A program made the translations under genes and the position numbers. Under the pieces are notes generated by a model. It was given only the letters and a program-made list of their open reading frames with translations, ran no database searches and was not told the origin of the DNA. A stretch of DNA of 64,000 nucleotides from an uncultured Chloroflexia bacterium (GTDB lineage: Bacteria; Chloroflexota; Limnocylindria; Limnocylindrales; CSP1-4), in the NCBI GenBank assembly GCA_963734535.1, contig CAVTHS010000008.1:384001-448000 (forward strand), read 5' to 3'. This document shows, piece by piece, positions 2 through 25,738 of the stretch (position 1 is its first letter; each line of letters opens with the position of its first letter).

Positions 2-2557
2 CGGCGCCGTGTCTCCGGTGCGCTGCTGGAGATCAGCGTCGACGACCTGCGGTTTCGGTCGTGGGAGGTGGAGCGGCTCTTCCGCGACTTCTACGACGAC
101 GCCCTCCGCCCGGACGAGCTCGCCCGGCTCGCCCGAAGGACCGAGGGCTGGGCCGCCGGGCTGCAGCTCTTCCACCTCGCCACCCGCGGCAAGCCACGCG
201 ACGAGCGACTGCGGATCCTCGCGGGCCTCGGCTCCAGCCCCCGGTTCGTGCGCGACTACCTGGCCCGCAACGTCGTCGCGGAGCTCCCCGACGAGCTGCG
301 CGACTTCCTGGTCCGGACCAGCGTCCTGCGCCGGCTGAGCGGGCCACTCTGCGATGCGCTCCTCGCACGGTCGGGGAGCCGGGCCCTGCTCGAGGAGCTC
401 GAGCGACGCAGCGTCTTCACGGTTGCGCTCGACGACGAGGGGACGTTCCGCTATCACGAGGTCCTGCGCAGCCATCTCGAGGCCATGCTCGTCGCGGAAG
501 CCGGCGAGCAGGGCGCGCGGGAGCAGGCACGCCGGGCCGCGGAGCTGCTGGTGGCCGTGGGAGCCGTGGCGGAGGCCCTTGCCGCCTTCAGCCGCGCCGA
601 GGACTGGGCCGCGGTGGATCGACTCCTCGAACGGCACGGGGCGCGGATCGTCGACGGCCACGGGGCGTGGATCGACAGCCTCCCGGCGGCGCTCCTGGTG
701 CAGGATCCGTGGCTCACGCTCGCCACTGCCCGGCGCCACCGCGCCGAGGGACGCTGGGGCCAGGCCCTCGACGCGTACGCAAGCGCCGAGGCGCTCTTCG
801 GGGCGGGCGACTCCGGGGCCGCATGCCGGCGCGAGCGGGTGGCGCTCGCCGCGTGGCTCGACCCGCATCCGGCGCCGAGCACCGAGTGGACGGGCTGGCT
901 GCGGGCCGCGGTCGCCCGCGATCCGCTTTCGCGGCGCGGACCCGTGGTGGCCGGCGCCGCCACGGCCGACCACACGCCAGGCTCCGGGCCGACGTCGCCG
1001 GGCACGGGCGAGCTGCTGGCGACAGGGCTCTCCGCGCTGGTCGCCGGACGGGTCAGGGACGCCAGGTCGCTCCTCGACGAGGCGGCGCGGGCCGCGGTGG
1101 ACGCCCCGACGCTCGCCGCGGCTGCTGCACTCGGCGGAGCGGTCGCCGGACTCCTCGCGGGCGACGCACGGGAGGCCATCGAGGCCGAGGCGGCCGTGGC
1201 GGCCGCCGAGCGGCTCGGCGTCCCGTGGCTGGCCCAGGTCGGACGGGCCGCGCTCGCGATCTCGCGAAGCCCGATCGGCAGCGAGTATGGACGGGCCGAC
1301 GCGTCGGCCGTCCGGGTCGCCGCCGGCCGCGAGCAGGACCCGTGGGGAGAGGCGCTGGCCGCGCTCGCCGAAGGATGGGCCTCGCTCGAGGAGCCGGCGG
1401 AGGCGGGTCCATCGCTGGAGATCGCCGTTGCGCGGTTCCGCGCGCTCGGTGCGTCCTCCCTCGAGGCCTGGGCACGATCGCTCGCCGCCGGCTGCCTGGC
1501 AATCGAGGACGCCCCCGGCGCCCGCGAGGCTGCCCTGGCCGCCGAGGCGTTCGCGCGGACGGCCGGCACGCCGGGACCGCATGCCCTTGCCTACGCGGCC
1601 CTCGCCATCGCCGATCCGGCGCATGCGCCGGATCTCCGCGCCCTTGCGGATGCCCTCTACGACGATACCGGGCTTTCCGAGCCTGAGGCACTCCGACCGG
1701 CGGGTCTTCGATCGCACGTGCCCGAGATCGGCGCCGCTGCGCGCGAGCCTTCGGACGGGGTCCCGCCGCTGGAGATCCGGTGCTTCGGCGCGTTCGCGAT
1801 CTCGGTCGCGGGCCGTGCCGTCGACCTTGCGTCGCTGAAGCCGCGTCCCCGGGCGGTGCTGCGCCTGCTGGCCGTGAACGCCGGCCGACCCGTCCATCGC
1901 GAGGTGATCCAGGATGCGCTCTGGCGGGACGCCGACCCCGAGGCCGGGGCGCGGAGCCTCCATGTCGCGCTCTCGGCGCTCCGCCGGGAGCTCGAGCCGG
2001 CCGAGGGCCGCGTCAGCCGCGAGATCCTGCTTCGCGACGGCGACGCCTACCGGCTCGCGATCCCGCGTGGCTCCCGCGTCGACGTGCTCGCGTTCGAGGA
2101 GGCCATGAGCCGCGGACGATCGGCTCGCGGACGCGACGACCGCGCCACCATCGCGGCGTTCCGGGCGGCCGTGGCGGAATACGCCGGCGACCTGCTGCCG
2201 GAGGATGGCCCGGCCGACTGGGTCGTCGCTCGGCGCGAGCGGGCGCGTGCCGACTATGTCGAGGCGGCGCTCGGCCTCGCCGAGCTCGTCCTCGTCGAGC
2301 GGCCCGGGGAGGCTGCGGCCGTGTGCGTCGCGGCGCTCGGCATCGACCCGTACCACGACCCGCTCTGGCGGCTGCTCATCGATGCGCGGGAGCGCGCCGG
2401 TGATCGCGCGGCAGCCGCGAGCGCTCGTGCGAGCTACGCCCGCATGCTTGCCGATCTCGGGCTCGCCGAATCTGCCGGCGAGGCCCGCGCGACCGCAGGC
2501 ACCCGCCCGGCCGAGTCCGTGCCGCTCACTTCGCCGCGCGGAACTCCACCTCGGTGA
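2..2557 (+). CDS. MalT-like large transcriptional regulator with C-terminal winged-helix + BTAD (SARP-type) module; 5'-truncated by window edge
   Basis: Frame open from base 2 ([12 protein letters not shown]). MalT-family motifs [26 protein letters not shown] and FRYHEVLR; helical region; C-terminal LEIRCFGAF...[33 protein letters not shown] typical of wHTH+BTAD. Confidence 0.85.
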
Positions 2558-4650
2558 TCGCGACGTTCGTGCCGCCGCTCGAGGCATAGACGGACTTCAC
2601 GGTCAACCGGAAGGTCGTTGCTCCCTTGGCGGACACGTCGAACGACTGCGGGTCCTTGACGTCCTTGAGCTCGAGATCCTTGGACGCGACGGCCGCGCCC
2701 GACGCGTCGAGGAACTCGACGCTGATGTCGTGCGGGCGCGGGCTGCCCTGGAAATCGGGGACGGCGCCCGAGGTGACGAGGATCTTCGCGATGTCCGTCG
2801 CCGGGCTGAAGCCGGCGCTGATGGCCGGGGCCGCCCCGCCCGTCACCGGAGCTGCCCAGTACGTGTTGCTGAACCCATCGAACGCCGCCTGGGCCGGGTG
2901 CCCCTTGACGGCCGGCCCGGTCGCCTGGCCGGCGCTGTGGACCGGGACCAGGTTCGGCGCAACCGTCTGCCGAATGGACGAGATGAACGAGTTGACGCCG
3001 TCGCGCCAGTCGGGGACCACGGCGTACCCGACGACCGCGCCGACGAGCGCCGCCACGACCACGACCTGGATCACGAGGGTAAGCAGCCGTCCGATCGAGA
3101 GCCCGCGCCGGCCCGCGCGACCGTCGGTGCGCATGCTCTTCGGCCGCTCGCCGGCGGCAGCCGTCGTTCGACGCCGGCGGAAGATCCGCCGGTACCAGGG
3201 CACCTTCGGCGCCACCGCGACGACGGCCTCGGCCAGGGATTGGCCGCAGCGCCGGCAGAAGCGCCGGGTCGGATCGTTGCCGATCCGGCAGTTCCCGCAG
3301 ATGAGATCGCCGGGGTTTGCCGGCGGCGTCTCGGCCTGCGCCTGGCGGGCCGCCTGTCGGGCATGTTCCGGGCCGGGCCGAACCGCGACGGGCTGCCGGG
3401 AGGCAGGCTGCTCCGGCATCGGCACCGGCACGACGGCCGCGGGCTGGACTGCCGGACTCACGACCGGTGCTGGCGGCGCGACCTGGCGAACCGGGCGGGC
3501 TGCGGGCGGCTGGGCGGGTGGGAGGGCGACGGGCCGAGCGGCTGGCGGCTGAGCTGTCGGAAGGCTCGCCGTCGGCTCGGCGAGGGGCGGGGTCGCGACG
3601 ATCGGCGGTGGGGTCGGACGGGCTGCCTCGAAGAGCGGACGTGGTCGCGGGATCGTGCCTCCGGGGCCCCCCAGGGCAGGCCGAATGCGCGGCGTCGCGG
3701 GCACCACTGGAGCGGGTGCCAGGGTCGGCGCGGCAGAGGGCCCCGGTTCGGGGATGGGTCCGGGTTCGGCAGCTGGCGCCGTGGTCGGTGTCGGCCCAGG
3801 CTCGAGCACCGGCTCGGCCACGACCTGGGGCCCGGGCTCGGGTGTCGAGGCCATTGCCTCGACTGGCTCGGCCACGGTGGACGGCGCGGGCACGGCCGCG
3901 GGCGACGGGGCGGGTGCCATTGTTGCGATCGGTTCTGGCTCCGGTGCGGAGTGGCGGTTCGGGCAACGGCGCTGGCTCGGGTTCGGGCAACGGCGCTGGC
4001 TCGGGTTCGGGCAACGGCGCCGGCTCGGGTTCGGGCAACGGCGCTGGCTCGGGTTCGGGCAACGGCGCCGGCTCGGGTTCGGGCAACGGCGCTGGCTCGG
4101 GTTCGGGCAACGGCGCCGGCTCGGGTTCGGGCAACGGCGCTGGCTCGGGTTCGGGCAACGGCGCCGGCTCGGGTTCGGGCAACGGCGCCGGCTCGGGTTC
4201 GGGCAACGGCGCCGGCTCGGGTTCGGGCAACGGCGCCGGCTCGGGTTCGGGCTCCGCCATCCGATAGACACGGGTACCGGAGACGATCACCGGTGCGGTC
4301 GGGGCTCCCGAGGAACCAGCCTGCGATGTTGCCGCGCCGGCAGCGTCCGCCGCCTCACGAGATCCTGGCGTCTCTCCTGCGCCGGGCTGGGCCGAAGAAG
4401 CGCCGGCCGGCTCGGCTCCGGTCCCAGCCGGTGCTGACCCGGCGCTGCCCAGGCCGACGGCATCGCGCACGCGGCCAACGAAGGTCAGGTGCTCGGGCTC
4501 GACGGGCTGCGGCGCTTCGGGTTCCGGCACGACCGGCTCGGGCGCCGCTTCGGCCACCTTCGACCCGGTCCATTCGAGGAAGCTGCCGCACGATCCGCAG
4601 AAGCTGTCCGCGGCGGTGTTCTGGAACCCGCACTTGGTGCAGACGATCAC
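2526..4650 (-). CDS. CisA-like bitopic membrane protein: zinc ribbon, Pro-rich linker, second zinc ribbon, TM helix, C-terminal discoidin/glycan-binding-like domain; frameshift near 3948
   Basis: GTG at 4650 behind GGAG gives [19 protein letters not shown]. After the PEPEPAPL repeat the coding sense moves to the frame of ORF 2526..4271: [52 protein letters not shown]...VAITEVEF. Last gene of the CIS structural operon. Confidence 0.75.
3956..4250. repeat. Coding tandem repeat, 12 x 24 bp (GGGTTCGGGCAACGGCGCYGGCTC), encoding (PEPEPAPL)n on the minus strand
   Basis: GGGCAACGGC recurs every 24 bp from 3961 to 4225; one C/T variable position. Confidence 0.95.
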
Positions 4651-4783
4651 GTGGCGCTCCCTCGACAGCCAGCCTGCCCGCGTGCTCGCGGTGCGCCCCG
4701 ACGGTTGGTCCGGCCGCGCGCGACCGGACCGGCGGAACGTGCGCGCATCGTAGCAAGCGGGCCGCGTCGAGCGAGCGCGCGGC

Positions 4784-5323
4784 TCACCCCTTGACGATCT
4801 CGATCCGGTGCGGCACGTGTGCCGGCTTGGCCGTCGAGACCAGCGCCTCCAGGCCCGACGCGGAGAGGCTCGCCGGATCCTTGACCCGAACCCGGATGAA
4901 GAGGTCCTCCGAGGTTCCAGCCGGGATCGGTCCGCCCGCATCGTGCGACCAGGCCGTTGCGCCCGGCTCGGCGATCTCCACCTCGCCGCCGCTGAAGACC
5001 GCGACGTGCGCCGCCAGGCCGCCGACGGTGCCCCGGATCCTGAAGAGATCGACGGCCGACGCCACGAAGGCCCGGCGCCGCTCGATGGGCCAGGTCTCGT
5101 CGAGCGCGGCTCCGGTCCACCCACCCAGCCATTCGAGGAAGTCCTCGGGCGCGAGCGCCGGATCGAGGTAGGCGGGGAAGCAGTCGAGCACCTGGACGAC
5201 ACCCGCCAGCACCTCGTCGAACGCCGCGGTGAGACGCTGGGTCATGTCGTCGTCACGGTAGACGCCCGGGAGATGCTCCCCGAGCGGGTGCGGCGAACGG
5301 AGCCCGGGAATGTGCCCCCGCAT
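4784..5323 (-). CDS. Phage tail / baseplate wedge protein (P2 gpI-like; CIS baseplate)
   Basis: LPGVY..DD...R...[18 protein letters not shown], ...FRIRGT..GL, KPAHV motifs; immediately downstream of baseplate J-like gene. Confidence 0.85.
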
Positions 5324-5327
5324 TGCC

Positions 5328-7277
5328 CTACGCCCCCTCGACGAGGAGCTGGTGCTCGTAGCTGAAGACCAGCGCATGCGGCTCGAGGTCGAGGCGCTGG
5401 GTCACCTGGCCGCGCTGGCCGGTGACAGGGTCCGCCCCGAAGAGACGAACGTCCTCCACGAGCTCCGTCCCGCGCAGCCCCTGGAGCACCGCGTACACCT
5501 CGCCCACCTGGACAGGGCGGCCGAACGGCCAGCCGGTGCCCTCCGGGCCGCCCGTGATCGGGTGGAAGTATCCGTAGATGGCACGCATCGCCTCGTCCTG
5601 GAGGCGCGTGGGGTTGACGCGAGGGCGTGCCCGGAGGCGCGCCACGATCGTGATGCCCCGGTAGGCCGGCGGCTCGACCAGCACGCGCGTGCCGACGACC
5701 CGGCATTCGTCGAGCCGGGCGGCGACCCGCGCGAGCGTCTCATCCGACGGCAGCAGCTGGTCGAAGCGGAGCCGCCCGGCGTCGGCCTCGGCAGCCGGCA
5801 CGACGAGGACGCGGACGGAGCCAGCGTCGACCCCGTCGCCCGCGGCCACGGCGCGCACCCGCGCCAGCTCCGGCGCCGCCTCGAGCGCGATGTGCTCGAA
5901 GTCCTCCGTGGTCACGGCGCGGCCGCGTGTGCGGAGCGAGATCGGGCCGCGCAGCTTCGCGTTCTCGATGTCCTCGCCGTCCACGCCGCCCGCCATGGGC
6001 CGGCGGTTCTCGACCCGGGAGACGTAGGCGATCGAGCTCTTGAGCACGCTGATCGCCCGCGGCGCGAGGTTCCCCTCCCGCCCGCCGCCCGTGAGGTACG
6101 CATCGACGCGGATGCGGGCACCCTTCGGCGGGACTCCGCCGTACTGGCGGACGGTCCCATCCTGCTCGCGGACTGCGGGCCCGAACGAGATCTCGCCCGC
6201 CACGGCATCGAGGACGAAGTGACGGTCGTCCGGCCCGGAGTCGGCGAAGTCCGGGACCTGGGTCCATTCCTGCCAGCCGGCCTCGTCGTCGGAGACGCCG
6301 AGCGTCATGGGCCGGTCGCCGGGCACGATGGGGCGATGCCTGACGGGGAACCGGCCGCCGGCAACGCCCTCCGCCGCGCCGAGAATCTCGTCGACGATCA
6401 CGTCGGCATGCACGGCCGCCGCCGTTCCGCCGATCGTGGCTGCCTCCAGGCCACGCACGTTCGGCGACGCGGAGTAGAAGGGCTGACCTTCCTCCGCTTC
6501 CGTGACACGCGCGCGGACCCAGCCCGCCCGTGTCTTCTCGATCACCGAGGCTGAATGGCCCGCCGGCAGGTGGACGACCACGTCGCCGTCCCGGTTCAGG
6601 CCGCCGGTGGTGTCGAGGTCGAGATCGCAGGCCTCCCAGTCCTCGCCCGTCCAGGCCTCCCAGGCGAGCGGCGGCCACGTTGGGTCCACCCCCACGCCCT
6701 CGATCGTGCACTTGAAGCGCAGCCGGAGCGCGTTCGACGGCGCCGGGTCGGAGAGGCCGATGAGAAGGAGGTCGCCTGGCTTCGGCTGGGTCTCGAACGC
6801 CAGGAAGTCGCGCGCGTTGAGCGCCTCGGTGGTGCGGTCGGCGTACTTCTTCCCATCCGCGGAGGTGAACGCGGCCGTGACCGCGACCGGCACGATCGGG
6901 AGGTCGTCGAGGGTCGTGAAGACGATTGCCTGGTCGGCCTCGGTGCGAATCGTCGCGGCCTGCGTCCCGCCGGGGATGCGGAGCGCCTGCGGCTGCGGGC
7001 CGGAGAGCCAGAACGTGACGTCGCCGCGCGCCGCGGACGGCGGGAAGAGCCGGATCCCGATCAGCTCCAGGAACTTGACGTAGTTGCGGTCCGGGACGCG
7101 ATTGACCCGGTAGAGGAGCTGGTCGGTCATCCAGGCGAAGAGCTCGATCAGGGTCACGCCCGGGTCGGAGACGTTGTGGTCGGTCCACTCGGGGCAGCGC
7201 TGCTGGACGAGCCGCTTCGCGTCGTCGACGAGGTCCTGGAAGCGGCGATCGTCCAGGTTGGGGACCGGCAGGGCCAT
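5328..7277 (-). CDS. Baseplate assembly protein (baseplate J / Afp11-like)
   Basis: MALPVPNLDDRRFQDLVDDAK...CPEWTDHNVSDPGVTLIELFAW; RAVTTEDFE; GWPFGR. Confidence 0.95.
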   Translation of the reverse strand: MALPVPNLDDRRFQDLVDDAKRLVQQRCPEWTDHNVSDPGVTLIELFAWMTDQLLYRVNRVPDRNYVKFLELIGIRLFPPSAARGDVTFWLSGPQPQALRIPGGTQAATIRTEADQAIVFTTLDDLPIVPVAVTAAFTSADGKKYADRTTEALNARDFLAFETQPKPGDLLLIGLSDPAPSNALRLRFKCTIEGVGVDPTWPPLAWEAWTGEDWEACDLDLDTTGGLNRDGDVVVHLPAGHSASVIEKTRAGWVRARVTEAEEGQPFYSASPNVRGLEAATIGGTAAAVHADVIVDEILGAAEGVAGGRFPVRHRPIVPGDRPMTLGVSDDEAGWQEWTQVPDFADSGPDDRHFVLDAVAGEISFGPAVREQDGTVRQYGGVPPKGARIRVDAYLTGGGREGNLAPRAISVLKSSIAYVSRVENRRPMAGGVDGEDIENAKLRGPISLRTRGRAVTTEDFEHIALEAAPELARVRAVAAGDGVDAGSVRVLVVPAAEADAGRLRFDQLLPSDETLARVAARLDECRVVGTRVLVEPPAYRGITIVARLRARPRVNPTRLQDEAMRAIYGYFHPITGGPEGTGWPFGRPVQVGEVYAVLQGLRGTELVEDVRLFGADPVTGQRGQVTQRLDLEPHALVFSYEHQLLVEGA

Positions 7278-7280
7278 CGC

Positions 7281-7682
7281 TCACTCCTCCGCGGGGATCA
7301 TGTAGAAGGGAAAGACGAGGTTCCGCGGGTCGTTCGATGACCCGACGGCGTAGCGGATGTCGATGTAGAGGGTCGCGGGCTCGTCGGGGTCGCGCGTGAC
7401 CTCCACCTCGCGCACGTCGATCCGGGGCTCCCAGCGACGAAGCGCGCCTCGAACGTCTGCCGCGATCCGGCCGAACGTGGACGGGTCGATCGCAGCGAAG
7501 ACCTCGTCGTGGATGCCGCACCCGAACTCGGGGCGCATCGGGCGCTCGCCGTAGGCAGTCCCCAGAACGAGCCGGATGCTCTCCTCGATCTCGCGCTCGT
7601 GCGTCACGAGGGCGATCCCGCCGGCAGCGTTGGTCCGGAGCGGGAAGGCCCAGCCGGCGCCGATGAACTCGTCGTTGACCAT
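7281..7682 (-). CDS. GPW/gp25 family baseplate / sheath initiator protein
   Basis: FIGAGWAFP, IEESIRLVLGTAYGERPMRPEFGC, RWEPRI, NLVFPFY. Confidence 0.95.
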   Translation of the reverse strand: MVNDEFIGAGWAFPLRTNAAGGIALVTHEREIEESIRLVLGTAYGERPMRPEFGCGIHDEVFAAIDPSTFGRIAADVRGALRRWEPRIDVREVEVTRDPDEPATLYIDIRYAVGSSNDPRNLVFPFYMIPAEE

Positions 7683-7693
7683 GTCCGTCCTCC

Positions 7694-9448: not shown

Positions 9449-9451
9449 CGC

Positions 9452-10602: not shown

Positions 10603-10636
10603 GGTGACCTCCGGGCGACGACGGTTGTCATGCTTC

Positions 10637-13585: not shown

Positions 13586-13586
13586 G

Positions 13587-14048: not shown

Positions 14049-14098
14049 GGATGTGGATCCTCCAGTCTGTCGTCAGGCAGGGTGGTTGGGCGTCCTCG

Positions 14099-15616: not shown

Positions 15617-15670
15617 GCGGATCGGCCCTCCCGGGCTGCGAAGGTAGGGACCGGTCGAGCGTGGCACCGG

Positions 15671-15843
15671 GGGCACGATCGCGGCAACGGGCGACCGGAC
15701 AGCCGAAGGGGCCGGTCGAGCTGCCCGATGGGGCACCGGGGGCGACCCGATCGGCTGCCCCAGGGCGGCTTGCCGCACGACGGACACCTTGCGAGGCTGA
15801 CCCAGGCGGGTCGACGTGCCCGCGGCCGAATGCGCGCCTGCCC
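15671..15843. promoter_or_regulatory. Divergent promoter region with clustered GGGCA/TGCCC boxes, including a TGCCC-N4-GGGCA palindrome
   Basis: Boxes at 15671, 15722, 15731, 15756, 15817 and 15839, between the divergent sheath and DUF4255 starts. Confidence 0.35.
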
Positions 15844-15906
15844 GGACCCGCGATCGGGGTCGGCCGGCGACCAGCGTCCCGCGACGGACCACCAGGGGTG
15901 CACCGG

Positions 15907-16659: not shown

Positions 16660-16682
16660 CCGTCCATGACCGGCGGCCCAGC

Positions 16683-18770
16683 ATGACCCTCGCGTCCCCC
16701 GTCACCGACGCGTCCGTCCGCCACCTTGCCGCTCGACTCGAGCTGGTCGAGGCCCGGATCCGGGTCGCGGTCGCTCGCCGGCGGGCCACCGACCCCGACC
16801 CCGACGACCGGTTCCGGGGCCTCTACGTCTCCGACGTGCAGGTCGACGAGATGCTGGCCGGCGCGCCCGTGCCACTCCTGCCCGCGGCCCCCGACGCGGA
16901 GGCGACGGCGCGGCTGGAGGCCATCGAGGCGGGCGCGGACGCGGCCGAGGCGGCGGGGGTCGACGTGCGACTGCGCCGGCTGATCCGGTCGTTCGCGCTC
17001 GAGCAGCTCGACGTGGAGCTCCTGCTCGTCGCGCTGGCGCCGGACCTCGACCCGCGCTTCGAGCGGCTCTACGGCTACCTCCACGACGATGTCTCGCGCC
17101 GACGGGCGAGCATCGGCCTGGCCCTGGAGCTGGTCGGTGCAGGCGGCGCGTCGGGCGCCGGCCGGGCGCGGCTCGGGCCGTCGGGACCGCTCATCGCGGG
17201 CGGGCTGCTGATCGTCGAGGACGTCGACCGGCCCTTCCTGACACGTGCGCTCCGCGTGCCGGACCGCGTCGCCGGCCATCTCGTCGGCGACGACACGACC
17301 GATCCGCTCGTGGCCGCCCTCGAGGTGACGCCGTCCGGGAGGGATCTCGCGGGCGCCGAGCCGCTGGAGCGCGGCCTGCGCGCAGGGGCGCGCCTCGCGT
17401 ATGTCCGCGAGCGCATCGGCACGGCCCCGCTCACCGTGGCCGCCCGCGCGCTGGCGCGCCTCGGGCCGCCGCCCATCGTCGTCGACCTGGGCCGCCTGGG
17501 GCCGCACGAGGAGATCGGGGAAGCGGCGACGGCCGCGATCCGCGAGGCACGGCTCCGCGGCGCCGGCCTGCTGGCGGGTCCCGTCGAGGTGCTCGCAGAA
17601 CGGGGCGCCGCTGCCGTCCGCGCCTTCGCGGAAGCCGGCTGCGTGACCGTGCTGCACGGCGCGCGCGGCTGGGATCCCGCCTGGTCGCGAACGGTCGCCT
17701 TCCTCGTCGAGGCGGAGCTCCCGACGGCGACCGAGCGCCGCGACGTCTGGCTGGCCGCCCTGGACGGGTCGGCGTCGGACGAGATGGCGGCGGCGATCGC
17801 CGCGCTCCCCTACCGGCTGGCGCCCGAACAGGTCGAACGCGCAGCCGAGGCGGGCCGCCTCACCGCGGCGGCATCCGGCCGGGCGGTGGGCGTCGCGGAC
17901 GTCGCGGCCGGCGCTCGATCCCAGAACGCGGCCGGCCTGGATCGCCTCGCGCGCCGGATCGATCCGCGCGTCGGCTGGGCGGACCTGGTCCTGCCGGCTC
18001 CGGTCGTGGAGCAGCTCGGCGAGCTGACCGCGCGGGCGCGCCACCGCGACCGCGTCCTCGATGATTGGGGACTCGCCCGCACGTCGCTCAAGGGACGTGG
18101 CGTGACTGCCCTGTTCGCGGGCGACTCCGGCACGGGCAAGACCATGTCGGCGGAGGTGATCGCCCGGTCGCTCGGCCTGGACCTCTACGTGATCGACCTC
18201 TCGACGATCGTGGACAAGTACATCGGCGAGACCGAGAAGAACCTGGACCGCGTCTTCAACGAGGCCGACCGGGTCAACGGCGTCCTCCTCTTCGACGAGG
18301 CCGATGCGATCTTCGGCAAGCGCTCGGAGGTGAAGGACGCCCGCGACCGCTATGCGAACGTGGAGGTTGCCTACCTGCTCCAGCGGATGGAGGTGTTCGA
18401 CGGGATGGCGATCCTCACCACGAACCTCCGCGCCAACGTGGACGAGGCGTTCCTGCGCCGGCTCGACGCGATCGTCGAGTTCCCGGTACCCGACGTCGAC
18501 GATCGCCGGCGCCTCTGGGAACGCAACCTCCCCGGGGCGCTCCCGACGACGGACGACATCGACCTCGACTTCCTGGCGCGCCGCTTCACGCTCTCGGGCG
18601 GGAACATCCGGAACGTGGCGGTGGGCGCCGCCTTCCGCGCCGCCGAGGGCGAACGGCGCGTGGCCATGGCCGACCTGGTCCGGGAGACGGCCCGGGAGTA
18701 TCGCAAGCTGGGCCGCCTCTGCGTGGAGGCCGAGTTCGGCTCGTGGTTCGGCGTGGTCGCGAGCGCCTGA
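16683..18770 (+). CDS. CIS-associated AAA+ ATPase (Afp15-like)
   Basis: LAPDLDPRFERLYGYLHDD N-domain; Walker A GDSGTGKT; KYIGETEKNL; Walker B LLFDEAD; FGKRSEVKDA.DRYAN.E..YLLQR.E. Confidence 0.95.
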   Translation: MTLASPVTDASVRHLAARLELVEARIRVAVARRRATDPDPDDRFRGLYVSDVQVDEMLAGAPVPLLPAAPDAEATARLEAIEAGADAAEAAGVDVRLRRLIRSFALEQLDVELLLVALAPDLDPRFERLYGYLHDDVSRRRASIGLALELVGAGGASGAGRARLGPSGPLIAGGLLIVEDVDRPFLTRALRVPDRVAGHLVGDDTTDPLVAALEVTPSGRDLAGAEPLERGLRAGARLAYVRERIGTAPLTVAARALARLGPPPIVVDLGRLGPHEEIGEAATAAIREARLRGAGLLAGPVEVLAERGAAAVRAFAEAGCVTVLHGARGWDPAWSRTVAFLVEAELPTATERRDVWLAALDGSASDEMAAAIAALPYRLAPEQVERAAEAGRLTAAASGRAVGVADVAAGARSQNAAGLDRLARRIDPRVGWADLVLPAPVVEQLGELTARARHRDRVLDDWGLARTSLKGRGVTALFAGDSGTGKTMSAEVIARSLGLDLYVIDLSTIVDKYIGETEKNLDRVFNEADRVNGVLLFDEADAIFGKRSEVKDARDRYANVEVAYLLQRMEVFDGMAILTTNLRANVDEAFLRRLDAIVEFPVPDVDDRRRLWERNLPGALPTTDDIDLDFLARRFTLSGGNIRNVAVGAAFRAAEGERRVAMADLVRETAREYRKLGRLCVEAEFGSWFGVVASA

Positions 18771-18826
18771 GATGGAGACGCACCGGCGGCACGCGCGGCC
18801 GAGCAGGGATTGACGGGAGCGGGACG

Positions 18827-19750
18827 ATGTCAGACGACGCCACGGCCATGCGGGAGGACGCGAGCATGCACCGCCACGAGCACGAGCGGGAGACGCCGCC
18901 ACGCCGCCCGATCCGGCGCTCCGGCGATGAAGCCGCCGCGACGGCGCTCGCGGCCCGGGCCGCTGCCGCAGGACGAACGGACGCGCTCGGCCCGGCTTCG
19001 GTCCTGCGCCTCCAGCGTGCGGCGGGCAATGCCGGTGTCGCCGGACTCTTCGATGGCGCGTCGGAGCCGGAATCGCCGGTGAAGGACGTGGTCGGCCGTG
19101 GAGGCGGAGCCCCGCTCGCGCCCGCCGTCCGGGAGCGCATGGAGTCGAGCTTCGGGACCGACTTCTCCGACGTCCGGGTCCACAGCGGCGGGGGCGCGGC
19201 GGCGTCGGCCCGCGCCGTCGATGCGCACGCCTACACCGTCGGCAACGAGATCGTCCTGGGCGACGGCCACGCCGAGGGCTCGTCGGCGCACGAGCGGACG
19301 CTGGCCCACGAGCTGACCCACGTGGTCCAGCAGCGATCCGGGCCCGTGGATGGCACCCCCGCCCCCGGCGGGATCTCGGTCAGCAGCCCGAGCGATCGCT
19401 TCGAGCGCGCCGCCGAGACGACCGCCGATCAGGTCATCTCGACGGGACGAGCCGGCGACGGCGCGGGACACGCAGCACCGGCGATCCAGCGCGAGGCCGC
19501 CCCCGAGGATGAGAACGAGGTCCAGGAGCTCGCGATCCAGCGTCGCGACGAGTCGGAGGACGTGCCGGACGAGGTGCCGACGCCCGGGGATGAGCCGCAC
19601 GACGTCCAGCGGCCCGAGGAAGGGCCGGCGCCGGCCGGCGCTTCGGAGGTCCAGCGGCCCGAGGAGGAACAGGACGAGGTCCAGCAGCTCGCGATCCAGC
19701 GCCGGGCCTCGCGGCGGACGGGTGGCGGGGCCGCGGCTGGGCAGCTGTAG
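18827..19750 (+). CDS. DUF4157 (eCIS-core) domain protein with acidic IQR/VQR-repeat tail
   Basis: LRLQR.AGN..V, G.PL...VR..ME..FG.DFSDVRVH, A.AYTVG..IV, LAHELTHVVQQ (HExxH). Confidence 0.9.
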   Translation: MSDDATAMREDASMHRHEHERETPPRRPIRRSGDEAAATALAARAAAAGRTDALGPASVLRLQRAAGNAGVAGLFDGASEPESPVKDVVGRGGGAPLAPAVRERMESSFGTDFSDVRVHSGGGAAASARAVDAHAYTVGNEIVLGDGHAEGSSAHERTLAHELTHVVQQRSGPVDGTPAPGGISVSSPSDRFERAAETTADQVISTGRAGDGAGHAAPAIQREAAPEDENEVQELAIQRRDESEDVPDEVPTPGDEPHDVQRPEEGPAPAGASEVQRPEEEQDEVQQLAIQRRASRRTGGGAAAGQL

Positions 19751-19774: not shown

Positions 19775-20455
19775 TCAGATGAGGCCCTGGCGGATCGCGT
19801 AGGCGACCGCATGGGTCCGGTTGCGAAGGTCAAGGCGCGACGTCACGTCGTGGATGACGTTCTTCACGGTCCGCTCGGAGAAGTACAGCCGGCGGCCGAC
19901 CTCGGCGGTGTCGTGGCCCTCGGCCAGCAGCCGCAGGACGGCGATCTCCCGCTCCGTGAGGCCGGCGAACGTGAGCCCGCGCGGGTGCAGCACCTGGCGC
20001 TGGAGGCGCCCGACCTGGGACAGGAGCCTGCCCAGGAGATCGGGCGGAAGGGTCCCCTCCCCGACCGCCGCGGCCCGGATCGCGGTGGCAAGGTGGCCCG
20101 CTGTCGCCTGGCTGCGCCTGACCACGCCGCTCACGCCCGCCTCGACCGCCGCGAGCAGCCCGGCGTCGTCGACCTTCGCGACCAGGAGGACCAGGCGCTC
20201 GTGGCCTGCGGCCCGGAGACCGCGCAGCTCGCGGGTCGTCTCCTCGTCCACGTCGTCGGCGACGACCACCATGACCGCGGCGGCCTCGGCGGCGGACTCG
20301 GGGACGACGTCGATTCCGGCCTGGTCGCGGAGGTGGGCCGCGAGGCCGGCGCGCGACAGGGGGTCGGCGCTGGCGATCGCGACGGCGATGCGGTCGACCC
20401 GGGCCGCCAGCGCCGCGGCGGTGGGACGGATGGAGATCGGCGCGGCGGTCAACAT
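19775..20455 (-). CDS. LuxR/NarL-family regulator with degenerate receiver domain
   Basis: C-terminal LTERE..VLRLLAEG.DT.EV...L..SERTVKN..H....L.LRNR.HAVAYA HTH; N-terminal DPLSRAGL receiver-like fold without a clear canonical phospho-site. Confidence 0.9.
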   Translation of the reverse strand: MLTAAPISIRPTAAALAARVDRIAVAIASADPLSRAGLAAHLRDQAGIDVVPESAAEAAAVMVVVADDVDEETTRELRGLRAAGHERLVLLVAKVDDAGLLAAVEAGVSGVVRRSQATAGHLATAIRAAAVGEGTLPPDLLGRLLSQVGRLQRQVLHPRGLTFAGLTEREIAVLRLLAEGHDTAEVGRRLYFSERTVKNVIHDVTSRLDLRNRTHAVAYAIRQGLI

Positions 20456-20800
20456 CTCGATGGCCCCTTCCCCCTGCGCCGCCGCGGCAGTCCCGTTCCG
20501 GACCGGATCTCGCGACGAGCGCGACAAGGGTGCGCCTGCGGCACATCCGGGCACTTAACGCCGGCATAACGGGCCGCTCTTCGGGCACTCGTCAGGGGTC
20601 GGGCGGACGCCGCCTGCGCGGGCCGGTTCCACGGGACGCCGTGATACGGAGTCCCTCGTGACCTTCCGGTCAGGCGCGCGCTGACCGGGTCCGCCGGGAC
20701 GACGGCCGCCTGATCGGGCAGCCGAACCTGCCCGACGGTCGTCGCGTGAACCGACACGGATGCTGGCGCGGCCCGAGCGCGGCCCCTACACTCCGCCACC

Positions 20801-22066
20801 ATGGGAGCACTCGTCACCCTCGCCTCGAAGGCGCTCGAGGTCGTGCCCGGCTCGGTCGCGTCGTGCACGGTGACCGTCAAGAACACCGGCACGGTCGTGG
20901 ACCAGTTCACGATCGACGTCCTGGGCGACCCTGGCGCGTTTGCCTCGGCCGAACCGCCGGCGCTCTCGCTCTTCCCGGGCGCCGAGGGCACCGCGGTGGT
21001 CACGTTCGCACCTCCCCGCGAGGCCGCCACACCGGCGGGCGCACTCCCATTCGGGATCCGCGCGCGGTCGCAGGAGGATCCGGGAGGCTCGGCGGTCGAG
21101 GAGGGCGTCCTCGCGGTCGGGACGTTCAGCGACACGTTCGCCGAGCTCGTCCCGCGGGCATCCCGCGGCAGCCGAGGCGCGACCCACGAGCTTGCCGTCG
21201 ACAATCGCGGCAACGCCCGCCTCAATGCCTCGATCACGGCCGCGGACCCGGACCAGCTGCTCGGATTCGATGTGCAGCCGCCGGGGCTGGTGGTCGACCC
21301 GGGCACGGCCGGGTTCGCGAAGGTCCGGGTCAGGCCCGCGAAGCGCTTCTGGCGCGGCCAGCCGAAGACGCGACCCTTCAAGGTCGCCGTTTCCGGTGAC
21401 GACGGGCGGCCGATCGTCCTCGACGGCACGATGCTCCAGGAGGCGATCCTCCCGCGCTGGCTCGTGCCGGCGCTCCTGGCGCTGCTCGGCCTGCTCCTCC
21501 TTGCCGCGATCCTGTGGGCCACCATCCTCCAGCCGGCGATCAGGAGCGCCACGACGCAGGCGCTTGCCGATGCCGGGTTCACGCCGATCCCGAGCCTGGC
21601 CTCGGGAGGCGGTGGTGGTGGCGCAAGCCCCGCACCCGGCGGCGGCTCACCATCTCCGGCGGCCTCGCTCGCGCCGGGCGCCTCGCCGAGCCCGGCCGCC
21701 TCGCCGAGCCCGGCCGCCTCGGCCGGCCCTCCCACGCCCACGCCGGCCCCGGTCGGCAACGGCGTGCCGCAGGATGGCCGGCTGGCCGCGGACGGGTCCA
21801 ACCCGCCGTCGGCGAAGTTCACCTCGACCTTCTACATGACGGACCTCGTCTTCGCGAACCCGAACGGCCGGGCCGGGACTCTTCAGCTCCTGCGGGACGG
21901 GTTCGTCCTGATCACGCTGCGGCTCGAGAACTTCCGTGATCTCGACTTCCACTACGTGACCCCGATCGTCATCCAGAAGGGGCAGACGCTGAGCTTCGCG
22001 GCCAGCTGCACGTCGTCCGGTGCGTGCGACCCATCCGTCTACTACTCGGGGTTCGTCCGCCCCTGA
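20801..22066 (+). CDS. CIS-associated membrane protein: tandem Ig-like (COG1470-like) domains, TM helix, Pro/Ser linker, small C-terminal beta domain
   Basis: V.PG......V.V.NTG.VVD.F...V.G, EP..LSLFPG, P.G..PF, LAVDNRGN; TM WLVPALLALLGLLLLAAILWA; C-terminal TDLVF.NP.G..G.L.L. Confidence 0.75.
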   Translation: MGALVTLASKALEVVPGSVASCTVTVKNTGTVVDQFTIDVLGDPGAFASAEPPALSLFPGAEGTAVVTFAPPREAATPAGALPFGIRARSQEDPGGSAVEEGVLAVGTFSDTFAELVPRASRGSRGATHELAVDNRGNARLNASITAADPDQLLGFDVQPPGLVVDPGTAGFAKVRVRPAKRFWRGQPKTRPFKVAVSGDDGRPIVLDGTMLQEAILPRWLVPALLALLGLLLLAAILWATILQPAIRSATTQALADAGFTPIPSLASGGGGGGASPAPGGGSPSPAASLAPGASPSPAASPSPAASAGPPTPTPAPVGNGVPQDGRLAADGSNPPSAKFTSTFYMTDLVFANPNGRAGTLQLLRDGFVLITLRLENFRDLDFHYVTPIVIQKGQTLSFAASCTSSGACDPSVYYSGFVRP

Positions 22067-22091
22067 GGCGGCCCGGGAGCCGGTGACAGGC

Positions 22092-24288
22092 ATGACCTCA
22101 CGCGGCCGCGCCGGCATCGCGGTCGCGGCGTGGTTCGCCCTGGCCATCACCGTGGTGCCGGCACTTGCAGCGGTCACGAGCCAGGGCCGCGGCATTCCCG
22201 GCAGGGGCCCGGCAGCGCCGATCGCGATCTCGCTCGAGCCGGGCGCGAACACCCGGGTGTCGGTCAACGACGACGGATCCCAGCTCCTCCGGATCGCGTC
22301 GGACGAGGCCGCGGTGAGCCCGGACGGCCGCTGGGTCACCTACCGGGCCTCGCTGGTCGGGGCGAACGTCAGGTCGGACAACGTGATGCTCGCGGATCGC
22401 GCGGCGGGGACGACCACGCGGATCTTCCCGGCTACCAGCGCCCCGGTCGCCGGGACACTCGACGGGCCGGTCGGGCCGGTCACGGTCGAGGAGCCGAGCG
22501 TCTCCGGGGACGGCTCGCTCGTGGCTTTCGGGCTGGCCAGCGGCAACCAGACGCCCACGATCATTCTCTGGCGTCGCGAGGGCGGCCTCACGTTCCCGTT
22601 GAGCGGGGCCCTGACCGGGAACGTGCCGGGGCTTGCCAACCTGCGGTACTCGGCGCTCCACCACCCACGGCTCTCGGCCGACGGAAGCGTCCTCGCGTTC
22701 CAGTCGGACGGCTACGCCCCGCTGACCAGACTGGCGGTTGTCACGCCGCTGCCCGCCGGCTTCTACGTCCTCGTGCTGGCGACCGGACAGGTCGAGGCGG
22801 TGAGCGCACCCACGGGCTCGACCACCCCGGGACCGATCGGGCGGCAGTACGGTTCCCTCGCCGTGTCGGGCGATGGCTCCGTGGTCGCATTCGCCTCGAG
22901 CCAGAACCTGCTCCCGCCAGGGGCGGCCGGCGGGGCGAACATCCGAGGCGTCCTGACGTCGATGCAGGTCTGGCGCCGCGATCGGTCCTCGCTGACGACC
23001 ACGCTCGTCTCCGCGGCGGACGGCGCACCGGCGGCCGGGACGAGCGACCACCCCGCCCTCTCGTCGGACGGCGGCGTCGTCGCGTTCGAGTCGGACGCCG
23101 CCAACCTGGTCCCCGGTGACACGAACGAGACCATCGACGTCTTCGCCTGGACGGCCGATGCGGGCGTCCGCCGCATCTCGACCGCCCCCGACGGGACGGA
23201 GGCCAACGATTCCAGCGCGTGGCCTGCCGTGTCAGCCGACGGTCGCTCGATTGCGTTCGCCTCGCGCGCCTCCAACCTCGTGCCGGGCGACACGAACGGC
23301 AACTGCCTTCGCCCAGACGGACCGGGCAACCCCGTTCGACATCTTCGTGGCCGGGCCCGAGACCGACCGGCTGGCGCGCGTCAGCGTCGGCGTCGGGCCG
23401 ACCGAGGCCGATGACACGAGCCTGCGGCCATCGCTCGCCCTGGGGGCCCGCCTCGTCTTCTTCGAGTCGCTGGCGACGAACCTGGTTCGCGGCGACACGA
23501 ACGGCAACTCCGACATCTTCGTCCGGGAGCGGCGCCCCCCGCAGCCGACGCCGTCTCCGTCACCGTCGCCGACCCCCACCCCGACGCCGACACCCACGCC
23601 GATCGTGAAGCCCGCGATCATCGTCTCGCCCAACCCCGTCGACTTCGGCAGCGTCCCGATCGGCACGCTCGGCACGTCGCGGAATGCGTCGATCCTGAGC
23701 GTGGGGACGGGCCCGGCGGACATCGGCGCCATCGCGATCAGCGGCACCAACGCGGGTGACTTCCTGGTCAGCGCAAACCCGTGCACGGGGACCAGCCTGG
23801 CGCCGGGAGCCTCGTGCGTCATCGGGATCCTCTTCATCGGCACGGCGACCGGGACACGGACGGCGATTCTCTCGGTGGCCTCGAACGCAGGACCCCCCGA
23901 GACCGTCCCGCTCGTCGCCGCGGTCGGCGTTGGCATCCTCCGCCTCGACCCCGCGACCGGCCCGACCGGCACCGTCACGATCGCAACGGGCGCCGGCTTC
24001 CCGGCGAACGCGCCGGTCGTGCTCACCTGGTCCGTCGGGATCACGCCCACGCCTCTCCAGGCGATCTTCACCGACACGAACGGTTCGTTCACGGCGCAGG
24101 TCCTGGTGCTGCCGAAGGATCGCGAGGGGCCCCGGACGCTCAGCGCCGTGGCCACGCTCTCCGGCGTCCCGGCGCCACCCGCGACCGCGCGCTTCCTCGT
24201 CGTCGCCGGGACGGCAGCGCCGCCCGTCAGCGGCCTGATCCAGGTCTTCCGCGACTCGTTCGGCCAGCCGATCATCCTGCGCCGGTGA
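22092..24288 (+). CDS. Secreted TolB/PD40-like beta-propeller + PT linker + choice-of-anchor-D/Ig-like domains; frameshift near 23300
   Basis: Signal-peptide-like N-terminus; repeats P.LS.DG..VAF.S.A.NLV.GDTN...D.F. The repeat continues in the frame of ORF 23116..24288 (DIFV...RVSV...NLVRGDTNGNSDIFVRE), then P.PVDFG.V..G and C....LAPGASC. Confidence 0.75.
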
Positions 24289-24373
24289 GCGAAGACCGCG
24301 TGGCCGCGCCATCCCCCACCGGGTGGGCTACGCTGCATCCGACGAGCGAGCGATGGAGGCGAACGCCAGCAGG

Positions 24374-25738
24374 ATGATCTGCGCGAAATGCGGCACGCAG
24401 AATGCGGCCGGGGACGCCTTCTGCGGCAGCTGCGGCGCGTTCCTCGAGTTCGCGGCCGAGGAGGCCGGCTCGCCCGGGACCGCGGCAGCCGAACCGCAGC
24501 CCGGGGCGTCCACGTCCGCGCAGGCCGCGCTCCCGACGGCGGCCGCGCCGACGCCGATGGGCGCTGCGCCGGCCGTGGACGCTCCCCCACCCGCCCCGCA
24601 GGCCCCGGCACCGGTCGCAGCCTCCGTGCCCGCGGTGGCGCCGTCGCTGGCGCCGTCGGGTCCCACCTGCCCGGCCTGCGGCCGTGCCAACCCAGCGGGT
24701 CGGACGTTCTGCATCTCGTGCGGCGAGCGCCTGCCCGCCGCGGGACGGGTGACCACGTCAGGCGCGCGCCCGGGGACGGCATCGCACCCGGCGGGACCGA
24801 TCGCCGCGGCGCCCATCGCAGCGGCGACGCGCCCTACCGCGCCGGCCCCCGTTCCGCCCGCCCCGCTCGCGTCGGCCCCGGCCCCAACGGCCGCTCCTGT
24901 CGCGCCGCCGCAGCCGGCCGCAGCGGCGTGGGAGTTCCCGACGGCGCCCGGCCGGCCGGTCGTTCCGCCGGGCGCCCGGCCCGGTGCCGGACCCGAGACG
25001 CCCGCGCCGGCCACGACCCGGCGCCGCGGCGGGAGCCCGCTCCCGTTGATCGTCGGCGCCGGCGTCCTGTTCCTCGTCCTCGCCGGCGGCGGTGCGGCCG
25101 TCCTGCTCGGCGGGAAGCCAGGCCCGACGGCGTCGGCGCCGGTCGCGTCGGCGCCGGTCGCATCGGGCGGCTCGGCGGCGGCGAGCGCTGCGGTCCCCGG
25201 TGCCTCTGCAGCTGCAGCGTCCGCGGGTGGAGCCTCGTTCGCGCCGTCCGCCGCCCCCGCCACGCTCCCGCCCGGCCCCTCGATCGGGCTGACCCTGACA
25301 GCCGCAACTGCCTCGTCGTCGCTCGCGGGCCATGCCGCATCGGCGGCCACCGACAACGACCCGACCACGGCCTGGAAGACGGGCGGATCGGATCCGTCCG
25401 ACCAGTGGATCGAGATCACGTTCGCGCCCGCCGCCGTGACGCGCGTCCAGCTGTGGAACGGCTGGCAGCGCACGCAGGACTACTTCGCCGGCAACCGGCG
25501 GCCGCGCAACGTCACGCTCCGCTTCGATTCCGAGACACCGATCCCGCTCAAGCTCGTGGACGTGTACGGATCCCAGCGCGTGGACATCCCCCCGGAGCTC
25601 GGGATCGTCGGCGTGACCCGTCTCCGGATCGCGATCCTCGACTGGTACCCGGCGAAGAAGACCCCGGCGGCCGGGAGCCCCACCACGCAGGCCGCGATCA
25701 GCGAGATCCGCCTCTATGGCATCCCGATGACACCATGA
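24374..25738 (+). CDS. Second CisA-like protein: two zinc ribbons, Pro/Ala linker, TM helix, C-terminal discoidin/NADase-type glycan-binding-like domain
   Basis: MICAKCGTQN..GDAFCGSCGAFLEF; CPACGRANP.GR.FCISCG; TM LIVGAGVLFLVLAGGGAAVLL; ATDND..TAW...QWI...V..V.LWNG.Q......NRRP...AISEI. Confidence 0.8.
   Translation: MICAKCGTQNAAGDAFCGSCGAFLEFAAEEAGSPGTAAAEPQPGASTSAQAALPTAAAPTPMGAAPAVDAPPPAPQAPAPVAASVPAVAPSLAPSGPTCPACGRANPAGRTFCISCGERLPAAGRVTTSGARPGTASHPAGPIAAAPIAAATRPTAPAPVPPAPLASAPAPTAAPVAPPQPAAAAWEFPTAPGRPVVPPGARPGAGPETPAPATTRRRGGSPLPLIVGAGVLFLVLAGGGAAVLLGGKPGPTASAPVASAPVASGGSAAASAAVPGASAAAASAGGASFAPSAAPATLPPGPSIGLTLTAATASSSLAGHAASAATDNDPTTAWKTGGSDPSDQWIEITFAPAAVTRVQLWNGWQRTQDYFAGNRRPRNVTLRFDSETPIPLKLVDVYGSQRVDIPPELGIVGVTRLRIAILDWYPAKKTPAAGSPTTQAAISEIRLYGIPMTP

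Follow-up and report, generated by a model that had tools for sequence, protein, structure and literature searches.

The DNA stretch analyzed here, hereafter the window, comprises 64,000 nucleotides (positions 384,001 to 448,000) of contig CAVTHS010000008.1 (contig 8) from assembly GCA_963734535.1, the metagenome-assembled genome (MAG) of an uncultured bacterium of the Chloroflexota. The MAG measures 3.2 Mb in 14 contigs, with a completeness of 89.9% and a contamination of 7.1%. Genes were called with a codon-score model trained on long open reading frames (ORFs), which gave 52 ORFs in the window, and were named via Pfam, the scan covering 46 of the 52 (those left out being 22340-22564, 29563-29823, 56923-57270, 62148-62579, 63146-63763, and 63751-63999). 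The analysis of gene calls and Pfam matches revealed a complete contractile injection system (CIS) within 2526-19750, arranged in two divergent units and containing the only sheath gene of the whole genome. All the members of the core set (Cis1a, Cis1b, Cis2, Cis7, Cis8, Cis9, Cis11, Cis12, Cis15, and Cis16) are present according to Pfam; the full list of CIS parts given in a first-pass annotation of this DNA was thus recovered, each named part lying where it had been placed. Loci of other genomes that were compared with the window are designated by L-numbers (L009, L014, and so on), L009 belonging to the same genus.

Read in the direction of transcription, the minus-strand unit contains the genes for the sheath (Cis2, 14099-15676; 685 bits to 8bky_A/9gtp) and the tube protein (Cis1a, 13587-14048; 65 bits to 8bl4_v/9gtp/9gts), both recognized by Pfam, followed by a conserved protein of 145 amino acids (aa) (13148-13585), which is 55-89% identical across loci and belongs to no Pfam family. 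The first-pass annotation had called the latter a chaperone, a label derived from its position and abandoned here, given that only chance Zn-finger matches were retrieved from Pfam even at E ≤ 1; in the Atlas, this protein falls into clusters of "hypothetical protein", commonest in Actinomycetota, and Phage_TAC_7 appears only with a score of 0.75 on 14% of one cluster. The next ORF (12993-13151) encodes a small protein of 52 aa for which DUF6760 had been proposed: an ORF 90% identical to it exists in L009, but the Pfam match (E 1.2e-4, 22.5 bits) is weak and lies below the cut-off of 27 bits. Then come a 782-aa low-complexity protein in tape-measure position, outside Pfam families and with a conserved C-terminal helix (10637-12985); the second tube protein (Cis1b, 10177-10602; Phage_T4_gp19, 122 bits to 9gtp_a); the tube initiator with a LysM-like C-terminus (Cis7, 9452-10177; CIS_tube, 146 bits to 9gtp_P, a "LysM domain-containing protein"); the VgrG-type spike (Cis8, 7694-9448; Pfam, 295 bits to 9gtr_q); the gp25-type sheath initiator (Cis9, 7281-7682; GPW_gp25, E 8e-26); and the two wedge proteins of Cis11 type (Baseplate_J, 5328-7277; 783 bits, full length, to 9gtp_1K) and Cis12 type (Tail_P2_I, 4784-5323; 140 bits to 9gtp_E). 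The unit ends with a homologue of cisA (2526-4650), which starts 134 bp past the Tail_P2_I gene, has the same position in relatives and in Streptomyces, and is read in two frames in the window.

The plus-strand unit encodes the cap or tail terminator (Cis16, Pvc16_N, 15898-16659; 187 bits to 9gts_0A), an AAA+ ATPase of the Cis15 type (16683-18770; WHD and AAA domains), and a DUF4157/eCIS_core protein with an HExxH motif and an acidic repeat tail (18827-19750). Two regulatory genes accompany these units. A LuxR/GerE gene on the minus strand (19775-20527) has copies 43-69% identical in other loci and is kept beside the cap gene in actinobacterial ones; it had been described as NarL-like, and the GerE/LuxR part of this description is borne out, but no receiver-domain match was found in it. 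The other one, on the plus strand (2-2557), is the C-terminal part (Trans_reg_C and BTAD) of a large regulator whose AAA/STAND NTPase N-terminus lies upstream of the window; this protein, which agrees with the MalT/BTAD regulator predicted earlier, is convergent with cisA and occupies the same position in L009-L012 and in some actinobacterial loci.

In order to compare this organization with that of other bacteria, the GTDB species genomes were scanned with a sheath alignment, which yielded 80 loci, and the proteins of the window were compared with them by tblastn. Among the matches listed, Streptomyces and other actinomycetes share a common order of genes, which runs from LuxR, cap, ATPase, Ig-like membrane protein, and DUF4157 to sheath, tube, 145-aa protein, a variable large gene, second tube, LysM initiator, spike, gp25, Cis11, and Cis12. 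In a search of the PDB, the CIS of S. coelicolor was the top solved-structure match for eight core proteins; the models 9GTP, 9GTR, and 9GTS are those of S. coelicolor according to the data-availability section of PMC12237407. Both the best structural matches and the gene order thus agree with the Streptomyces-type arrangement that had been claimed. Sequence comparison shows homology with the actinobacterial loci in the full set of structural genes and their order, as well as in cisA, in the LuxR regulator, and in the membrane protein with an Ig-like part.

The slot that follows the wedge genes deserves attention, since it is taken by cisA, and no tail-fibre gene was found among the Pfam-scanned proteins of the locus. 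The N-terminal piece of the CisA homologue (3955-4650, minus strand) contains a Zn ribbon (Zn_Ribbon_1, E 2.7e-4), a short helix, and an EPEPAPLP repeat in 12 copies; in the C-terminal piece (2526-3953, minus strand), a disordered linker rich in Pro and Ala is followed by the second Zn ribbon, a basic stretch (PWYRR), a single membrane helix, and the outer domain. Five actinobacterial genomes (Streptomyces/Nocardia) were tried with the last 344 aa, and a homologue was retrieved in three (E 1e-18 to 1e-25), all of them Streptomyces and all with the gene directly behind that of the P2-I protein. The Streptomyces and Chloroflexota proteins have a common plan, i.e., Zn ribbon, disordered linker, Zn ribbon, PWWRR-like stretch, membrane helix, and finally a domain of some 150 aa that closes with the motif AIxExEFF. 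The identification of a CisA-like protein made from the window alone is therefore upheld, in that the homologues found in these three genomes share both its place and its architecture. The family is large, with 1064 cluster representatives at E ≤ 1e-3, 733 at E ≤ 1e-10, and 172 at E ≤ 1e-30; a homologue search among longer proteins gave seven matches of 626-922 aa. In Stackebrandtia albiflava (L087, 745-2996), a CisA-family gene adjoins the gene for the Ig-like membrane protein rather than that for P2-I, directly behind which a BTAD regulator is located.

The structure of the region from the second Zn ribbon to the end was modelled with AlphaFold2 (AF2) from 130 sequences, with a predicted local distance difference test score (pLDDT) of 91.3; the model shows a helix at residues 74-99 followed by a beta sandwich. 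Foldseek retrieved 237 PDB matches (E ≤ 1e-3) from this model; those of the outer domain have APC10/DOC1, CBM32, and F5/8 type C domains at their head, the CBM32 matches including modules with bound galactose. The best target-normalised TM-score was 0.81, obtained with 2v72 (root-mean-square deviation 2.9 over 144 columns), and the Pfam family NADase_transloc (F5/8 type C) scored 39 bits on the CisA copy of a Streptomyces sp. (L103). On the basis of this model, the outer domain of CisA is predicted to fold as a discoidin/CBM32 jelly roll. In the main text of PMC12237407, the words "zinc" and "carbohydrate" are absent.

Downstream of the LuxR gene, three further genes on the plus strand encode proteins of the membrane or the cell surface. 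The first one (20801-22066) is a bitopic membrane protein with an Ig-like N-terminal part (Cep192_D3), a helix at residues 215-247 as judged from hydropathy, and a small C-terminal domain. The second one (22020-24288) is a surface protein with a signal anchor, PD40 repeats, a Pro/Thr linker, and Ig-like domains, and is distributed over two ORFs in the window. The third one (24323-25738) carries two Zn ribbons, a membrane helix, and a divergent discoidin-like outer domain, and represents a second CisA-family paralogue: its outer domain aligns with the CisA family profile in hhalign with a probability of 99.9% (E 2.6e-32, 23% identity over 129 columns), and these two are the only CisA-family members of the genome. 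Three membrane or surface proteins had been expected here, and the Ig-like bitopic and the PD40/Ig-like protein correspond to that description, but the third turns out to be a CisA relative and the PD40 protein is split. Of the 18 other genomes of the genus, the 12 that possess the sheath type of the window also contain the paralogue, at a distance of about 9-10 kb from the sheath gene, and the others do not; the whole unit (Ig-like protein, PD40/Ig-like protein, and paralogue) is preserved in two relatives, one from the same genus and one from a different genus of the family. Homologues of the Ig-like protein were seen in nearly all related loci examined, with identities of 33-39% in Streptomyces and about 30% in the other Chloroflexota type described below. 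This protein, which is more widely conserved than CisA, might be a second membrane partner of the machine. A gene of the GH13 (alpha-amylase) family (1169 aa, 25735-29244) overlaps the paralogue by 4 bp; in the same-genus genome, too, it comes next after the paralogue (81% identity), which is not the case in the other genus of the family.

As far as the host is concerned, the nearest named sheaths belong to sequences labelled "MAG: Chloroflexota bacterium" (88% and 82%) and "Candidatus Limnocylindrales bacterium" (74, 71, and 70%), the latter placed under Chloroflexota in the NCBI taxonomy, and to further Chloroflexota MAGs, followed by Acidimicrobiales (69 and 67%) and Streptomyces (59-63%). 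With the closest sheaths in Chloroflexota MAGs and Streptomyces at just 59-63% identity, the earlier opinion that the host is not a streptomycete holds. The assignment to the phylum has good support, while that to the class Limnocylindria is a likely guess; genomes of Ca. Limnocylindrus are very small. Among the 18 other genomes of the genus, a sheath match was found in 13; twelve of these matches have 87-94% identity, and the remaining one, which is of another type, has 49%. The 12 genomes of the sister family (1.0-1.4 Mb each) gave no match. The GC content is 73% throughout the window, and that of the locus equals that of its flanks. Since the sheath type recurs in 12 of the 18 genomes and the locus does not differ from its flanks in GC, it can be regarded as native to the genus.

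The co-occurrence of sheath and CisA was then mapped onto a sample of 401 genomes of the phylum, 81 of which (including the unpublished G256, which is not CisA-positive) have a sheath match at E ≤ 1e-20; CisA homologues were accepted at E ≤ 1e-6, and the two lists were compared by eye. A CisA homologue is present in 14 of the 15 genomes with a sheath at least 69% identical to that of the window, the exception being G166, an assembly of 140 contigs, and in none of the 66 other sheath-positive or the 320 sheath-negative genomes. In the sampled genomes of the phylum, CisA thus tracks exactly this CIS clade. Sheath and cisA lie about 12 kb apart on one contig in six genomes. Among 60 other genomes of the family of the window, seven contain a CisA homologue.

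A maximum-likelihood tree of 59 sheath rows was obtained by a quick search, with rows from these loci and without a labelled reference set of other lineages. The window belongs to a clade made up of 12 Chloroflexota-side rows and of a contig that is labelled Verrucomicrobiia (L028); this clade joins six rows of Actinomycetota with a support of 95. The main actinomycete clade is separate (30 rows, including all the Streptomyces ones; support 97), as is the clade formed by six other loci of the same phylum; the branching order among these groups is left unresolved by the tree, and sheaths of other types from the same phylum (33-35% identity) are placed on branches longer than 5. The sheath would group with lineage IId, a subtype name that is taken from PMC12237407 and PMC12998442. 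The checks of synteny and sheath phylogeny suggested in the first-pass annotation thus revealed an order shared with actinobacterial loci and a sheath that groups with those of Chloroflexota and of Actinomycetota, Streptomyces included. The monophyly of all 19 Chloroflexota-side sheaths was rejected with an approximately unbiased test p-value (p-AU) of 2.1e-11, a result confounded by L028 and two very long outgroup rows; once these three were removed, p-AU was 0.019 and the difference in log-likelihood 28.8, for a group that had been named after the tree was seen. From these sequence data, an exchange of CIS between Actinomycetota and Chloroflexota, for which no direction is claimed, appears likely, although weakly tested; an exchange between phyla is likewise proposed in PMC12998442. 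As for L028, its sheath has a genome of the family of the window as its neighbour within the clade (support 99), and the gene order is the same; it may belong to a mis-binned contig or reflect a transfer.

Parts of the stretch were found in 20 public sequencing runs from 17 studies. Contigs were compared with the window for X1 and X2 (peat metagenome), X6 (soil metagenome), and X19 (soil metatranscriptome); the runs beyond these have shares of 0.05-0.27. In the soil RNA library X19, contigs 93-98% identical to the window cover, in at least eight pieces, the spike, second tube, DUF6760/145-aa, tube, sheath, cap, and LuxR genes. Such cover is no more than a hint that a related population transcribes these genes, and is compatible with DNA carry-over; the zero depth of X19 in bins 3501-4167 and 11505-12171 reflects lack of cover and is no evidence of silence.

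Taken together, these data suggest, with a probability of about 0.75, that the locus is a chromosomal type IId CIS of the Streptomyces (CIS-Sc/SLP) kind, native to an uncultured genus of Chloroflexota that is probably Limnocylindria-like. By homology with Streptomyces, the particle, composed of cap, sheath, tube, spike, and Cis11/Cis12 wedge and devoid of tail fibres, would assemble free in the cytoplasm, and would fire only once CisA has docked it to the membrane of the producer itself, CisA being required for contraction. The cytoplasmic arm of this protein, with its Zn ribbon and disordered segment, would contact the baseplate wedge, while its discoidin/CBM32-like outer domain would sit in the cell wall and probably recognize or bind a glycan there; if fired under envelope stress, the machine would kill the producing cell. 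The second CisA paralogue, encoded together with the Ig-like and PD40 surface proteins, may act as a second input for docking or for sensing. In PMC12237407, the arm of CisA that lies in the cytoplasm is predicted to touch Cis11, and the full-length Streptomyces protein is reported to be toxic in E. coli. In a complex prediction made here with Cis11, Cis12, and the first 135 aa of CisA, a score of 0.42 was obtained (0.42, 0.43, and 0.38 in the individual runs) against 0.00 for the best of three controls, with a partner pLDDT of 44 or more and an agreement between runs in 55% or more of the contacts. The pass mark used is reached by 58 of 80 solved complexes and by 2 of 110 mismatches; at scores up to 0.60, however, only seven of the 80 solved complexes passed, and both passing mismatches fall in this range.

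Several observations weigh against the assignment to the Streptomyces kind or against parts of it. The complex prediction is a weak pass, which lends weak support to the docking of CisA and is compatible with it without being a proof. The 14 genomes in which CisA and the sheath co-occur belong to three families (f1, f18, and f8), and, being kin rather than independent samples, they correspond to few independent events. A CisA homologue is missing in two of the five actinobacterial genomes tried (S. nymphaeiformis and a Nocardia), and the Streptomyces proteins used as comparators are taken to be CisA by position, size, and architecture, the comparison having been made with them and not with SCO4242 itself. 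In PMC12237407, the outer domain of CisA is likened to periplasmic substrate-binding domains, whereas the AF2 model obtained here matches otherwise. The site of the particle, its firing, and the outcome for the cell, i.e., its presumed cytoplasmic location, membrane anchoring, and effect on the producer, are all carried over from Streptomyces (PMC12237407) and from the imaged type IId members (PMC12998442). Lastly, cisA is frame-broken in the window, and the strain may be without a working CisA adaptor.

The latter point leads to a different explanation, according to which the locus is decaying in this strain, cisA and the PD40 gene being pseudogenes and the machine no longer firing; one-base frame breaks in both genes are what would be expected in this case. 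One extra base near 3954 splits cisA into a frame running from 4650 to 3955 and another from 3953 to 2526, and the CisA family profile matches the two pieces separately (profile positions 1-146 on the N-terminal and 36-415 on the C-terminal one). The break is located at the 3' edge, in gene sense, of a tandem repeat of 24 bp (3956-4252; 12.4 copies, 97% matches, 297 bp), a typical trouble spot of assemblies. The CisA of L009 (850 aa, a single ORF) aligns to the window in two frames, but the remaining CIS proteins align to that copy in one; CisA is intact in close relatives, with 705-850 aa, and the copy of the window would have about 707 aa if read through. With regard to the PD40 gene, the window has a base at 23303/23304 that is lacking in the contigs of all three DNA runs (one contig in X1, one in X2, and two in X6), one of which holds 0.83 of the sampled words; its removal would join the ORFs 22020-23414 and 23347-24288 into one gene, as follows from frame arithmetic, and this break is probably an assembly error or a rare variant. 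Of the contig pieces listed, none extends over 3501-4383, and contigs of this sort can hardly be expected to bridge the repeat of 297 bp, so that they are silent on the cisA break. Since the assembly contains at least one such indel and the cisA break lies at the edge of a repeat, the latter is more likely to be an artefact than a pseudogene, by about two to one, and a decaying locus is on the whole unlikely.

Other explanations concern the kind of machine rather than its state. An extracellular CIS (eCIS) of the Afp/PVC type would be assembled in the producer's cytoplasm, set free when that cell lyses, and would bind other cells; the cap, ATPase, DUF4157, sheath, tubes, spike, and wedge are common to eCIS, and PDB matches to Afp, PVC, and AlgoCIS do exist. 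These matches have lower scores, though, and the presence of cisA behind the wedge genes in place of any tail-fibre gene, the lack of holin and endolysin families among the Pfam matches of the locus, and the cytoplasmic location of the nearest characterized relatives (PMC12237407; PMC12998442) make a released particle improbable. Membrane anchoring could also serve a machine that fires outwards at neighbours, like type VI secretion or thylakoid-type systems, with CisA and the Ig-like protein as its anchor: the locus codes for two or three bitopic membrane proteins, the outer domain of CisA is lectin-like, and a spike with 50% identity within the genus, against 77-88% for its neighbours, is expected under conflict-driven selection. 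Such use is hardly to be expected, however, of a locus that has neither a trans-envelope complex nor an immunity gene beside a toxin domain, and whose DUF4157 protein contains no toxin domain. The phage-tail origin of the parts, reflected in their Pfam names, might finally point to a prophage tail remnant or a tailocin, but the locus is kept in place across the genus and beyond, and the Pvc16 cap, the AAA ATPase, and DUF4157 are marks of CIS. Moreover, the scanned ORFs gave no match to capsid, terminase, portal, integrase, or lysis families: capsid, terminase, portal, holin, and endolysin families are absent at E ≤ 0.01 from the 46 ORFs scanned in the window, and phage families from the 10 of 20 ORFs scanned within 20 kb upstream, where cobalt and ABC transporters, a LysM protein, and CopC are encoded. 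This agrees with the earlier statement that capsid, terminase, and lysis genes are missing, within the scanned part of the window and the scanned half of the upstream region, and renders a phage remnant extremely improbable. A match of Holin_2-3 to 60801-61373 (E 0.12) is at chance level and was discarded.

If the locus is a cytoplasmic CIS of the Streptomyces kind, its cargo would most likely be the 782-aa low-complexity protein and/or the DUF4157 protein. No toxin domain was recognized in either of them from Pfam or from the translations, and the 782-aa protein has no Pfam family and no membrane helix. Its conservation in relatives is limited to the N-terminal and C-terminal ends, and a role as tape measure is a guess based on its position and its conserved C-terminal helix. 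Between the window and L009, this gene is more diverged than the spike gene, with just 83 residues that align; the spike itself (7694-9448) is only 50% identical to that of L009 (10567-12351), the flanking CIS genes being at 77-88%. In three relatives, the gene in tape-measure position includes a DUF4157-like stretch (L012:7824-8042, L030:11676-11903, and L015:9867-10106) that is absent from the copy of the window; Tme-type effectors of S. davawensis likewise have a DUF4157-like stretch (PMC11126660).

Some features of the neighbouring regions can be added. A cluster for corrinoid methyl transfer (32855-38659) includes a RACo activase, a fusion of MTHFR and DUF5981, a pterin-binding methyltransferase, a B12-binding corrinoid protein, and DUF1638, and a CbiM-CbiQ cobalt transporter is encoded upstream of the window (L106:7246-9426). 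No cobalamin riboswitch was found above the Rfam threshold, the sole Rfam match in the window being a tRNA on the minus strand (61396-61468). The segment from 56 to 64 kb has a lower GC content (68-70%) and weakly scoring ORFs.

The closest counterpart of the locus among the systems described so far is CIS-Sc of S. coelicolor (PMC12237407), with which it shares the structural proteins, their order, cisA directly after cis12, a LuxR gene beside the cap gene, and the lack of a tail fibre. In that organism, too, CisA combines a disordered arm in the cytoplasm with a single membrane helix and an outer domain that is conserved. Differently from CIS-Sc, the locus of the window belongs to a host of another phylum with a genome of 3.2 Mb, its sheath is 59-63% identical to those of Streptomyces, and it harbors a second CisA paralogue and a PD40/Ig-like surface protein. 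SCO4242 has 468 aa (PMC12237407), whereas the CisA of the window would have about 707 aa if read through, contains a 12-copy repeat, and is frame-broken in the assembly. The SLP cluster of Streptomyces lividans (PMC13277306) also includes a small DUF4157 protein and a LuxR-type regulator (SlpR); however, the DUF4157 gene of the window is located behind the ATPase gene, unlike that of SLP, and no protein resembling Sle1, i.e., a coiled-coil protein with a membrane hairpin, was seen beside it, Sle1/Sle2 being the cargo described there. With Afp and PVC, the locus has in common the core architecture and the cap, ATPase, and DUF4157 marks, but those systems are defined by tail fibres and by release, which were not found here; the PDB matches to Afp, PVC, AlgoCIS, and Anabaena are far below the scores of S. 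coelicolor, Pvc2 reaching 180 bits against 685 for the S. coelicolor sheath.

Within the same phylum, the comparison is with the cytoplasmic CIS clade of Roseiflexus, other Chloroflexota, and Deinococcota, published in February 2026 (PMC12998442), which likewise belongs to lineage IId and for which a cytoplasmic mode is proposed on the basis of its likeness to Streptomyces. The surprise expressed in the first-pass annotation is lowered by this publication, since a related Chloroflexota clade was already known. Unlike the window, Roseiflexus has no close cisA homologues according to that paper. The loci of that other type that were compared here from the same phylum (L014, L017, L018, and L019), whose sheaths are 49-60% identical to that of the window and form a separate clade, have after the P2-I gene a protein of about 1030-1110 aa that combines a Ser/Thr kinase and an FHA domain with an Ig-like part and a membrane helix; the presence of such a protein in the cisA slot agrees with the lack reported for Roseiflexus. 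The Ig-like part of this kinase-FHA protein is homologous to that of the window protein 20801-22066.

According to PMC12237407, cisA is found in 75 of 120 genomes, all 120 from Streptomyces and other actinomycetes. CisA, the only known firing factor, has so far been described only in these bacteria. In the literature library searched, no link between Limnocylindria and contractile injection systems and no cisA outside actinomycetes was found; CisA, Chloroflexota, and contractile systems were met together only in PMC12998442, in which the absence from Roseiflexus is reported. What is new with respect to the cytoplasmic CIS known in Streptomyces and, since 2026, in thermophilic Chloroflexota and Deinococcota (PMC12998442) is therefore modest, and consists of a CisA outside Actinomycetota, its duplication, and its domain make-up, the Streptomyces-like CIS that includes cisA being now known from a second Chloroflexota lineage. 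The two Zn ribbons and the predicted discoidin/CBM32 outer domain point to a contact with wall glycan and to one between Zn ribbon and baseplate, both of which are testable in Streptomyces. A broader proposal is tentative, and rather doubtful as a whole: CisA would represent a large envelope-spanning family with two Zn ribbons, a disordered arm, a membrane helix, and a lectin-like discoidin domain, the package of machine, adaptor, LuxR regulator, and Ig-like membrane protein would have moved between Actinomycetota and Chloroflexota, and a duplicated adaptor with two different lectin domains that face the wall could gate firing on two envelope signals. If this were true, small-genome Chloroflexota of soil and peat, with no Streptomyces-like life cycle, would possess a stress-triggered suicide device. 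In comparison with the systems already known, the locus widens the host range of the Streptomyces-like CIS, not its kind.

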